Source: Eledone cirrhosa
Lineage: Eukaryota
NCBI GenBank assembly: GCA_964016885.1
Contig: OZ024740.1
Coordinates: forward strand, 157,790,001 to 157,854,000
Direction: 5' to 3'
Length of the DNA: 64,000 bases
The notes below the pieces were generated by a model that did no database searches, was not told where the DNA came from, and saw only the letters and a list, made by a program, of their open reading frames with translations. A program made the translations under genes and the position numbers. Numbering within the stretch: position 1 is the stretch's first letter; every line of letters begins with the position of its first letter. This document shows positions 9,320 to 64,000 of the stretch, one piece after another.

Positions 9320-9500
9320 TAATAAAGGATGGCTTTTCCAAAGTGTGTCACCCCACCAGCTAAATAAGGTACTCAATACGACACTAGAGAGGAAGCATAT
9401 TTATTTTATAAAGAAATGTCATCTAAACGACTCTAACTGTTTCATTCATATGGAACCATCAGAAACGTCCTGATGGTTTCATACGAATGAAACATTTCTG
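9320..9500. mobile_element. Short fold-back with degenerate HHR (A9G, U.U variant)
   Basis: Arms 9438-9462 / 9470-9494; right arm CTGATGG-T-TTC-ATAC-GAA-T-GAAA-CA; the minus-strand arm continues CAG-TT-AGA. Confidence 0.55.
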
Positions 9501-9616
9501 ATGGCCGACTGAATACTCACGTGTGTTCTTTTTTCTCCCTAATTGTTTCCCCCATTTTCCCCGTTCCTTCCTTTCATCACTCTTTACTTCCTATTTACCT
9601 TCCATTTCTAACTCTA

Positions 9617-9655
9617 TCTGCTGATGAAGGACTAGTGTCCGAAACGTTAAGACTC
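9617..9655 (+). ncRNA. Hammerhead-like motif (pLTR remnant)
   Basis: CTGATGA-A-GGAC-TAGT-GTCC-GAAA-CGTT; stem I pairing is poor. Confidence 0.45.
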
Positions 9656-10819
9656 TCTTCTTGCTATTTCAAGCGTTAAGGTAATATATTTCTTCCATGT
9701 AATGTGTTTGTTTTGCCATTTTTGTTATTAAATTTACACACACGCATACCTAACTGTGCATTCACTATACACACACACACATACACACACACGCACACAC
9801 ACACACACACACACACACACACACACACACACACACACACACACACACACACACACACACACACACACACACACACACACACACACACACACACACACAC
9901 ACACACACACACATGTATATATATATATATATATATATATACGTGTGTGAGTGTGTATATATACGTGCGCGTGTATATGTGTGGGTGCGTTTGTGTGTTC
10001 GTATGTAGTGAATGTATAGTTAGGTATGTTTACTCATTTATTAATTCCCCACTCTTCAGAAATATTTGTTTATTTATATACTTTTATTTGTTTTTAATCA
10101 TTTTTTTAATAGCGTTAAATTTTTTATCAGTTCGTCTATAACCTCTTACCTTTCAGTTTATATTTATAGTCTTTTAAAAATTGTTAAATTTGTTGTTACA
10201 CTTAATTCAATTAATTTTATCTCCATCATGACAATGAGATATTTTTACCGTTTTCCACTAAATTTAATTGAATATATAATTTATTTTGTCACTAACTGAG
10301 CCTCAGACACTGTAGTATCAACACCCTTACATCTAGAATATATAGATGTATGCTTCTAACTTAAACTCTGCCTCTAAACGATACATTACGTCTGCATGCT
10401 TACATTTTTATCTATTCCTGACTATCTTGTCTCCTTATCCTTTCCGTCATTTCACTTAAATTTGTCAACATCGTCTCCCTTTCTCTTCTACTGCTCCCTT
10501 TATACACAGAAACATATCTATCAATGTATGTTTTCATCTTATAATCACGCTTTGCCTATTCCCCACTCCCTCACTCTTTTTATACATTTTCTATATTAAG
10601 CTCTTTGGCATTATACACATAATTGTTTGTATTTCTTAAAACAGCTAACCAATAATTTAGAAATTTAAACCTCTGGTTTTTTCTAAGTGCTTTCATATAC
10701 GTAAACATATATTTCCTAATAATTCTCTACCTGTTATTCGATGTAAAAAGTTCTAGAGAAGGAAACAACATATAGTCATTTGACACAAACCAGGAGAATC
10801 TCTCAAGAGAACTGAATAG

Positions 10820-60168: not shown

Positions 60169-61869
60169 AAACAAACAAGCAACAATAACAATAACAACGG
60201 CCTTATTTACGTGGTCGCTCAACTTGCAAGAAATAACAGCTAAATGTCCTACTCATTATACTGTGCCATCTTAAAAAAAAAAAAGACATGATGGATAACG
60301 TAATCATGAAAACAAATGACAGGAATGTCATAATTGGAACGCCGCTTTCATTATAAGGATTTGCTCGATCAGACAGAGTTGAGCAGGAACAAAGCAACTT
60401 AAAACTAAAATACCTTGAGTATAATTATAATTAGTTATGTCAATAATCAATAATCAATACAATCACGTGATCGATATAATTGATCAATTTTATTTTCTAA
60501 CGAGTAGGGTTTCGTTAGATGTCCCGATCACTTACCTACAAGCCCTTCCCCATTTACCATGATGTTACGTCATTGAAACACCCATTTCACCCATTAACGA
60601 ACAGAACATAATTACGAGGTAAAACAAAATGAAAAAGTTTGCGTCATTGAATATTAGTTGCTAGGCTTTGAATTAAATGCTTTGCGTCAGTTTCTCCGAC
60701 TCGCTGTGTTCCGACTTGCTGTGTTCTGGCACGCTGAGTTCAAATCTCGCCAATGTCAACTTTACCTTTCATTCATTCGGGGTTGATAAATAAATTATCC
60801 CTCCAATTCTCTCTCTCTCTCTCTCTCTCTCTCTCTCTCTCTCTCTCTCTCTCTCTCTCTCTCTCTCTCTCTCTCTCTCTCTCTCTCTCTCTCTCTCTCT
60901 CTCCACCTCTCTCTCTTTCTGCATGTCAAATTATAATAACGTATTTTGTGCACATTTGAATGTTTCAAGCTACGTCTATATACGTTACAGAAAGTGTTTC
61001 TCTGTTTCTCGTGTTTTGTGTATGTATGTCATTTTGCTGGACTAGATATTTGTGAGTCCACATACACACGGTGGGCTCTGTGTATGTACATATGTACTTC
61101 TACTCAGGAAAGAAGAAATCGGAAGATCTCAGATGACCTGGAGAATGAAGGGCTCCGCCAAGTTTAAATGACCATGAAATATTTCGAAGACGTTCCTACA
61201 TTAACGGCTTCAATCCAACTCCTCGAAATCCTGCCTTTTACCATAACATCGGATCCAACCAATCCTTCTCACTGTAACAGCGAAGGCAGAAACTATGTGG
61301 AAGCACGTCGGGTAAACTATACCTCTAATTCAAAAGTCCAGCCTTGTCACATATTGTGCTACGCTGATTCTGCTTGAGTATTACTTACGCTGTACTTAAC
61401 CACTCACTGATAATGGTTTCCATTTGAGGTACAATGTCGGCAATGCGATAAAAGGATACAATCAATTAAATTGTCCTCAATACTTGACCAGTTCTTTATT
61501 TTATCGATTCTCGAATGATGAAAGGCAGGGATTTGAGCTCAGGGCGTAAAAACATCGGAACAATTACCATAAAACATCTGATACTCTGCGAATTCACCAC
61601 CCTTACCTAATTTCAGAGAGGTGAAAAGTCAATTAAATCGACTCAACTACATTGTTGGTTATATGAACTCCGTAATTCCTCTGGTATAGCAATTATTTAG
61701 CAATTATACCATGATTCATTTTACAGCTTGATAACTTGCAGTTGTGTTTCTGGTGAGCGAACGAAGGTAATGGTACACTGTGACCACAAAAAGACAAGAC
61801 ATTGTGGTCTCGAATACTATACTTTTATGTCATTGGTCAGTTCAATCAGGAATGACCTAGAGATAAACA

Positions 61870-62058
61870 ATAATTGTTTCTACTTTTGGCACAAGGCCAA
61901 CAAATCCCCAGTACATTACTGGTACTTTATTTTATCGACCCCGTAAGGATGAAAGGCAAAGTTAACCTCGACGGGATTTGAACTCAGACGGTAAAGGGAC
62001 GTAACTATGCTAGAAAGCATGGCGTCCAACCCTCTACCGATACTGCCAATTCACCGCA
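61870..62058 (-). mobile_element. tRNA-derived SINE (Nin-like core)
   Basis: Reverse complement of the 14-kb consensus; older copies at ~60725-60805 (+) and ~61420-61600 (-). Confidence 0.85.
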
Positions 62059-63759
62059 ACAATAATACCAACAACTACAAAATAGAAATAGCAGACAAAT
62101 CCTCTTTAGATTTCACCTTACCATTTTACGAAAGAAAAGAATATATCTAAAAGGCAGAAAAGGAAAACAGTCTCATCATAGGCCTGCTCAATCAGAGCTG
62201 TATTAGGGCTAAACAACAACAACAACAGCAACAACAGGAACAAAAATATCAGAGATTGATTCCATCTTGATACTGCAATGTTAAATGCACTTTGGAATCT
62301 AGAAGAAACATATATATAAACACACAAACACACATACACACATACACAATGACTTATATACATGCACATAAACACTAACACTCATACACAGATACGCACA
62401 TATTCACAAACACAAAAACTCACATACATGCACATACACACACATTGACCCAACGTACACTCACGCATGCGTAGACACAATACACACATGTACAGTAGCA
62501 TATAAGCTGTCGTGTTTCCATAATTTGTTTTCCAGTAATATAATTGTTCTTTCGAATCGTTTCCATCAACGACAAACCATAATTACGATGAATTTCCCAT
62601 TTAGATTACATCCATTCGTTAATGGCTCTCTATATGTGAGTATGTATGTATCTATGTATGCATGTATATATGTATGAGCATATATATATATATATCAACA
62701 CACACATATATATATATATGTGTGTGTGTGTGTATTTATGTATATATATATATATATATATATATATATATATATATATATATATATTATATATATATAT
62801 ATGTATTTATGTATATATGTATAAAATATATATATATATATATATATATATATATATATATATATATATATATGTATATATATATATATATATATATGTA
62901 TATATATATAATTATATATATATATAATTGGTGTTGGATGCTTAAAGCGTTTGGTCGTATGAGCACTCGAATATATATATATATATATATATATATACAC
63001 ATACAAGATGCATATATATAGATACTTCCATATGTGTGTGGGTGTATATGCGAGTGTGTGGTTCCGCAGATTGTCCAATAATTAGATCTTGAGATGAAAA
63101 CATACTAAAGTACATATTCTATTGGAGAGATAAAAGAAACATTGTAAAACATCTGTTCCACTCTATGCCATGTTCGTTTGCTTATTCGTTTAATCCTTTA
63201 TTCTTTTATTGGTTTCAGTCATTAGACTGTAGGAATACAGTGGCACCCATTCATTTAGTCGATTATTTCGATGTTAATCTTTATTTTTATAAACTTTTGT
63301 ATTTATTTTATCTATCACTTTTAGTGCAACCGTTAATTTACAGGACATGATCACACACACAGACATGTAGACGTAAATAACAACTCAAACACCCGCACAC
63401 ATACACAAACACACACACACATGTATATATATATATATATATATTATATATATATATTATATATATATATGGTACTATTAAGTTAGACTGGCCGAAACCA
63501 ATCAAAGTTATATATGTATAAGAGTTAACCTAATATATCGCTTCCATATACTGTACCGATTGTGTTGTTATTTCTGTTTAGCTTTTTGAAGTTTTGGTGG
63601 TTAACCACTGGATAGAACTGGTTATTCCGTATAGTTAACCATAATGTAGTAGTAGGAAAAGCACGCGCACACATGCGCACACACACACACACACACACAC
63701 ACACACACACACACACACACACATATATATATATATATATATATATATATATATATATT

Positions 63760-64000
63760 TAATACATAAACAGAGAAAGCCTTAAGCTATACTCTGATTG
63801 GCAACTATCTCACTCAACAAACTTTAGGATATACCTTAGTATAATCCCAATTATATGTTTGGGGTGCTAACTATATGTATTTTGTGGAAAGCCAGCTGTA
63901 TTATTTTATATGAGATACAATTAAAATTTAAATATATATCTCTCTTTCCAAACAATTGTTTCATTATAAGTTTTTTACAAGTTGGGATAATGTATCCGGG
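63760..64000 (-). mobile_element. Probable pLTR arm cut by the window end, containing the 3' half of an HHR
   Basis: Minus strand T-GAAA-CAATTG-TT-TGGAAA at 63945-63963; (TA)n flank. Confidence 0.5.

Follow-up and report, generated by a model that had tools for sequence, protein, structure and literature searches.

Type I hammerhead motifs with a U·U closing position in stem II, associated with PLEs and likely derived repeats in the Eledone cirrhosa genome

Background

A 64,000-nt stretch of the Eledone cirrhosa genome (assembly GCA_964016885.1, contig OZ024740.1, positions 157,790,001 to 157,854,000), hereafter called the window, carries recurrent hammerhead motifs in which two Us face each other at the base of stem II and cleavage would follow UU. 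Do these motifs form a hammerhead subclass of their own, as a sequence-only reading of the window had proposed, or do they belong to a known group? The explanation in which we place considerable confidence is that they are type I hammerheads in the terminal repeats of Penelope-like elements (PLEs) and in likely non-autonomous derivatives of these elements, that they likely cut as dimers, and that a loose closing position in stem II tolerates U·U. Reviews used as background were PMC6765202 and PMC6155905.

Hammerhead motifs in the window

Scanning of both strands for CTGANGA-T-[stem II]-T-GAAA-[palindrome]-TT-[stem I] placed the motif at 17441-17469 (plus), 24422-24452 (minus), 50428-51880 (five copies) and 55912-56011 (plus), which bears out the positions given in the sequence-only reading. 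The short-stem pattern matched 8 times in the window, whereas 100 shuffles averaged 0.06 matches. The adjoining DNA completed the copy that had been half-visible at 63945, giving it U·U, GUU and a stem II of 8 bp. Copies at 17325-17353 (minus) and 52421-52520 (minus) and a core-damaged copy near 26893 had been overlooked. Six families had been claimed; five are clear, and the site at 9438 is a degenerate remnant whose family retains U·U and whose cleavage triplet could not be fixed. The features of the window are as follows.

9438..9497, unstranded: fold-back remnant with two degenerate hammerhead cores; G replaces A9 on both arms
17320..17358, minus: inverted second copy of the 17436-family hammerhead, from the window scan
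17436..17474, plus: hammerhead in the 3′ remainder of a young, 5′-truncated, putatively Neptune-type PLE; U·U, 3-bp stem II, palindrome AGUACU, CUU
24417..24457, minus: hammerhead at the 3′ end of an inverted family A copy; U·U, 2-bp stem II, palindrome ACAAUUGU, GUU, (TA)n 34 nt on
24630..24977, minus: endonuclease end of PLE family A, inverted and 5′-truncated
24913..26833, plus: broken RT and GIY-YIG ORF (DKT) of PLE family A, whose relatives have an RWR/RWK-like motif, CxCx5C and no CCHH
26890..26927, plus: second hammerhead of family A, core-damaged, CUGA lost
50210..52158, three copies minus and two plus: 431-bp units, ORF-less, retrozyme-like, probably non-autonomous
50423..50463 (match at 50428), minus: 431-bp hammerhead copy 1; stem I mismatch; U·U, stem II AGCU, palindrome ACUAGU, GUU
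50854..50894 (match at 50859), minus: 431-bp hammerhead copy 2; stem II mismatch
51283..51323 (match at 51288), minus: 431-bp hammerhead copy 3; broken palindrome
51413..51453 (match at 51418), plus: 431-bp hammerhead copy 4; stem I mismatch
51845..51885, plus: 431-bp hammerhead copy 5; intact
52421..52520, minus: family B hammerhead, inverted copy, A6 changed to C
52913..55000, plus: broken RT and GIY-YIG ORF of PLE family B, putatively Hydra-type; intact relatives with RWK, DKT, CxCx5C and no CCHH
55906..56017, plus: family B hammerhead; U·U, stem II domain of 81 nt with a 5-bp base, ACAAUUGU, GUU, (TA)n 60 nt on
63945..64000, minus: 3′ part of the hammerhead of a 742-bp unit; U·U, stem II domain of 95 nt with an 8-bp base, ACAAUUGU, GUU; the 5′ half lies past the window end

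One copy from each of the five clear families was checked. Stems I and II were paired and their sequences were unrelated between families, with the flanking Ts and the TT kept, as had been described; positions 10.1 and 11.1 were both U in 5/5, and stem III (A15.1 to U16.1) was a perfect palindrome of 6 or 8 nt in 5/5. The cleavage-site triplet was GUU in four of the families and CUU in one. With the core CUGANGA, GAAA and UH, three helices and ends in stem I, these are type I hammerheads, in which stem III closes well only in the dimer form.

The usual base pair at 10.1-11.1, mostly G-C, was replaced by U·U in all five families, a published and tolerated exception (PMC3088659, PMC7229834). In the PLE hammerhead consensus of Cervera and De la Pena (2014; PMC4209133), A9 is followed by an extra base and G10.1-C11.1 is conserved; the five families have a symmetric U·U instead, and most motifs found here have no extra base and a free closing position. 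The consensus form does exist in the window, at 9621. An Rfam search of the window gave no hammerhead at the gathering threshold (0 matches), and an E-value search gave none among the 150 of 511 matches listed. The E-value list was dominated by microsatellite matches to miRNA models.

Of the 11 motifs measured in the window, 9 had a (TA)n tract starting 34-128 nt downstream. Most of the window copies are likely stubs that are no longer alive.

Carrier elements

The motifs had been tied to PLEs, and this held: type I hammerheads were found in two Hydra-type families and one Neptune-type family. In these three of the five families the placement was that of PLE hammerheads, in a pseudo-LTR 3′ of an RT and GIY-YIG ORF and at both ends. 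In L042, a relative of family A, two identical motifs lie 2,577 nt apart in direct orientation and flank a 722-aa frame.

Intact relatives of families A and B encode DKT, RWK or RWR (most intact family A N-termini read RWR), a CxCx5C linker, no CCHH and a C-terminal endonuclease, with CxxC and CxH around conserved E and N. The Hydra clade is defined by RWK, DKT, CxCx5C and an absent CCHH (Craig 2021, PMC8557442), and on these protein motifs families A (24.4-26.9 kb) and B (52.4-56.0 kb) are read as Hydra-clade PLEs. Members of this clade are expected to be <3 kb in length and inserted at (TA)n; family A has 2,577 nt between its motifs and (TA)n 34 nt downstream, and family B has a span of >3 kb and (TA)n 60 nt downstream. 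Searching Pfam with the Hydra-type proteins gave no matches, and a protein atlas search returned PLE-like clusters without clade names or informative taxa. Nematis, the first guess for the carrier, was dropped once the definition of the Hydra clade was compared.

Full elements of the 17436 family have a 775-aa ORF with the motif approximately 390 nt downstream. The encoded protein contains GxKF, DKG, a Cx4CxxC linker and, at the C-terminus, a GIY-YIG domain with CCHH, and the family (17.3-17.5 kb) is read as a Neptune-type PLE; Neptune is preferred to Nematis because the spacer after the linker is long (PMC8557442). This protein is almost unrelated to that of family A (best BLASTP E 0.005). 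The best 150 copies of the family share 96-98% identity with the query copy, indicating recent spread.

The 431-bp and 742-bp units are ORF-less tandems with one type I hammerhead per unit. A PLE protein match was found near the 431-bp units in 1/20 loci and near the 742-bp units in 0/20. In their sequence organization both resemble non-LTR retrozymes, and they are likely non-autonomous tandem derivatives of PLEs. Such retrozymes are derived from PLE terminal repeats in a 2026 preprint (10.64898/2026.07.22.740005). Published units are 150-450 bp in length; the 742-bp unit is longer.

Dimer form

The palindromic stem III had been held to suit cleavage as a dimer. This is in line with folding, in which an explicit double hammerhead was 11-17 kcal/mol more stable than two stem III-closed monomers in 5/5 families, each with its perfect palindrome. 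Without constraints, the 17441 and 24452 motifs folded into the double hammerhead, 63945 nearly did so, and the others did not; for the 431-bp and long-stem motifs the minimum-energy fold often deviated from the hammerhead.

Dimer dependence is the standard mechanism of PLE hammerheads and likely applies here. By analogy to published work on PLEs and retrozymes, a transcript across a tandem or partial tandem would carry two motifs, which would pair via the palindrome into a double hammerhead. The double hammerhead would cut after position 17 and free a unit-length RNA, and this RNA might then be reverse-transcribed or circularised. The window's inverted motif pairs, being on opposite strands, are unable to pair in this manner within one transcript.

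G10.1 aids metal ion binding, and minimal hammerheads cut more slowly at GUU than at GUC. Mild attenuation would fit both points. In the young Neptune-type family, which has U·U and CUU, many copies are 96-98% identical, and attenuation, if any, thus did not block its spread. A non-cleaving role may also be considered for the motifs, given that published PLE minimal hammerheads are poor even as dimers (PMC4209133).

Published precedents

Perreault et al. 2011 (PMC3088659) reported a natural stem II beginning with U10.1-U11.1, the same mismatch at the same position as here, and, citing Ruffner 1990, gave it as the best-tolerated mispair. The variant was rare in that collection, and the parts of the paper considered here make no link to PLEs.

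Cervera and De la Pena 2020 (PMC7229834) described the axolotl motif HHR_Amex2, present in approximately 60,000 copies, whose helix II has U·U at its base. The monomer cleaves weakly, 22% in 1 h, and the dimer much better. Like the motifs in this study, those of the axolotl non-LTR retrozymes are type I, have U·U and stand in tandem repeats (350-bp there); however, HHR_Amex2 is a canonical motif whose loops 1 and 2 make contacts and whose helix III has 2 bp, and is not the minimal motif of PLEs (PMC7229834).

The closest precedent is in the Hydra clade. In File S2 of Craig 2021 (PMC8557442), U·U occurs in 14/25 Hydra-clade families and U·U together with U17 in 8/25, by our own count and with two of the 14 U·U rows identical in sequence. 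These hammerheads share with ours the ctgaNgat ... tgaa core, a longer near-palindromic stem III and (TA)n targets, and their carriers share RWK, DKT, CxCx5C and no CCHH. The families found here differ in stem II, which may hold inserts of 80-95 nt, and in copy number, which rises to tens of thousands. The authors term the motifs canonical, and the parts of the paper considered contain no remark on U·U and no test of the motifs (PMC8557442).

Minimal PLE hammerheads in Cervera and De la Pena 2014 (PMC4209133) are likewise type I, lie in pLTRs and have a palindromic stem III with proposed cleavage as dimers. Their Fig. S3 gives 56 PLE hammerheads, of which 24 have U17, 25 have C17 and two have U·U (Hydra and apparently D. 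willistoni), as counted by us in extracted PDF text with the GAAA column detached (PMC4209133). The outcome that the sequence-only reading had named as its own refutation, the variant being already common in published PLE alignments, holds for the Hydra clade (14/25); in the broader alignment U·U is rare (2/56). The preference for GUC, GUA or AUC sites, from which the sequence-only reading had started, does not apply to PLE hammerheads, with U17 in 24/56 rows (PMC4209133).

The U·U variant is already published, and the window motifs add new members to the known PLE hammerheads. Lunse et al. 2017 reportedly described small PLE hammerhead variants that cleave as dimers, which may bear on novelty. 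A search of literature titles and abstract openings found no class defined by a free 10.1·11.1 position, the likeliest source, Lunse et al. 2017, lying outside this comparison, and no cephalopod hammerhead counts.

Closing-pair states in the genome

The 3.0-Gb genome was scanned, with reversed patterns as controls. One U·U pattern gave 11,502 matches, against 414 in the control, and a second gave 55,161, against 191. A structure-based scan over 254 sources (1.03 Mb), a sample chosen by search and hence biased, gave 434 matches, 165 of them distinct, in 40 clusters, and 0 in the reversed sequence. Across these clusters the closing position had at least ten states: U·U, A·A, A·G, C·A, A·C, G·U, A-U, U-A, C-G and G-C. 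The 431-bp family stem was also found with C-G and C·A closure, and family B has relatives with A·G, A-U or G-C closure.

Because sister lineages hold C-G, A-U and G-C there with length unchanged, the U·U probably sits at 10.1·11.1; these sisters of equal length also disfavoured the reading of the two Us as extra bases. That U·U might be a signature of the Hydra clade only was ruled out by the Neptune-type family, which has U·U, together with the family B relatives that have A·G, A-U or G-C. As it is found in two deeply diverged PLE clades, we infer that U·U arose more than once, maybe via G·U.

Several observations could also be explained if the motifs no longer cleave, U·U being decay in an AT-rich genome and pairing of the palindrome alone, or nothing, being of importance. 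Most window copies are damaged, and the CUGA start was altered (CCG or CGG) in 12 of the 28 parsed copies of the 55905 family; PLE minimal hammerheads are slow in vitro (PMC4209133), and Naiad PLEs have spread without canonical hammerheads (PMC8557442). However, CUGANGA, GAAA and UH were held in all 40 clusters, whose stems are unrelated, with 0 matches in the reversed control, and U·U was retained across family A lineages that differ in loop II. Furthermore, U·U is reported to be the best-tolerated mispair (PMC3088659) and the axolotl U·U motif does cleave (PMC7229834). Decay is therefore regarded as very improbable, and a tolerated U·U at a loose closing position is preferred.

Closing pair and cleavage site

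A co-adapted pair of U·U and U17, marking a separate subclass of hammerheads whose (slow) chemistry is tuned in its own way, would account for the presence of both features in the five window families. The two were compared by copies and by families. Among the U·U matches 9,940 of 55,161 (18%) ended in GUU, as compared with 16,769 of 35,276 matches without U10.1 (48%, controls of 1,290 and 5,792 unsubtracted), with patterns that omit the Neptune-type family and the long-stem families. Even when all 11,502 matches of the other U·U pattern were added as U17, the share of U·U with U17 was at most about a third. G-C closure with GUU was common genome-wide. The motif of the 431-bp family had GUA in 24,749 copies genome-wide versus GUU in 484, and the five window copies therefore represent a minor lineage.

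Tables by family lean the other way. U17 was the main state in 6/10 U·U clusters versus 7/30 others (p 0.052, in the biased sample), and in Craig File S2 it occurred in 8/14 U·U families versus 2/11 others (p 0.10; PMC8557442). However, 5 of the 6 supporting clusters are the window's own families, which were fetched deliberately, and one of these is the 431-bp family with its GUA genome-wide. U·U and UU do not travel together in this genome, and a weak trend at the family level remains. With both features published, GUU in 18% of the U·U matches and a 431-bp family that is mostly GUA, the proposal of a distinct, undescribed subclass was not supported, and we consider co-adaptation highly unlikely.

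Significance

The significance of these motifs is modest, the variant being published and no new class being opened. The remaining lead is an apparently free closing position in many families, which is moderately surprising. It is possible, though we are doubtful, that hammerheads whose palindromic stem III is long (6-10 nt) are a dimer-only class freed from the requirement for G10.1-C11.1, the long stem III compensating. Whole families hold U·U, A·A, A·G, C·A or A·C at the closing position, and two distant PLE clades of the same genome would have reached U·U and a UU site independently. If such a class exists, the genome would be a natural mutant library for the closing pair, with >80,000 motifs.

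Young high-copy families with many closing-pair states make the role and speed of PLE hammerheads easy to test. Searches that require a pair at 10.1-11.1, as in Perreault's filter (PMC3088659), or that use Rfam models would miss more than half of the counted-pattern motifs in this genome.

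Hammerhead abundance and long stem II inserts

Two patterns alone, one of the U·U type and one with another base at 10.1, gave approximately 85,000 hammerhead-like matches beyond control in the Eledone cirrhosa genome, many of them held in long tandem arrays of 310–500-bp units. This number comes near the 126,000 hammerheads of the axolotl. Several families carried structured inserts of 80–116 nt within stem II, both at three loci beyond the window (L044, L061, and L119) and at two places in it:

55912–56011 (55905 family), 81-nt insert
63945 onward, 95-nt insert

This is different from the usual loop 2 of PLE hammerheads, which is far shorter; hammerheads with such inserts would escape short-loop descriptors.

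In the 55905 family, CUG at the core start was replaced by CCG or CGG in 12 of the 28 parsed copies (L224–L253). The copy sequences suggest that a sub-lineage with the U4 change spread, with U·U and GUU being kept.

Other hammerheads and repeats in the window

The following hammerheads were also observed:

16764 (−), 16845 (+), and 24062 (−), A-U closure, TA-rich palindrome, AUA site
9621–9655 (+), consensus-type minimal PLE hammerhead (extra A, G-C, ACGU, GUU)
20818 (+), motif with G-C closure, AUC site, and long stem II

Among copies of the A-U/AUA type, position 11.1 was U, C, or A.

Other repeats included:

661–5869 (+), non-LTR retrotransposon ORF (endonuclease, RT, and zf-RVT)
33010–38025 (−), non-LTR retrotransposon ORF (RT with C-terminal C2H2 finger), its frame continuing across a microsatellite
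18569–18659 and 56172–56348, long near-perfect inverted repeats

The two inverted repeats, probably ends of fold-back transposons, gave the top Rfam miRNA-model matches among those listed, under the gathering score.
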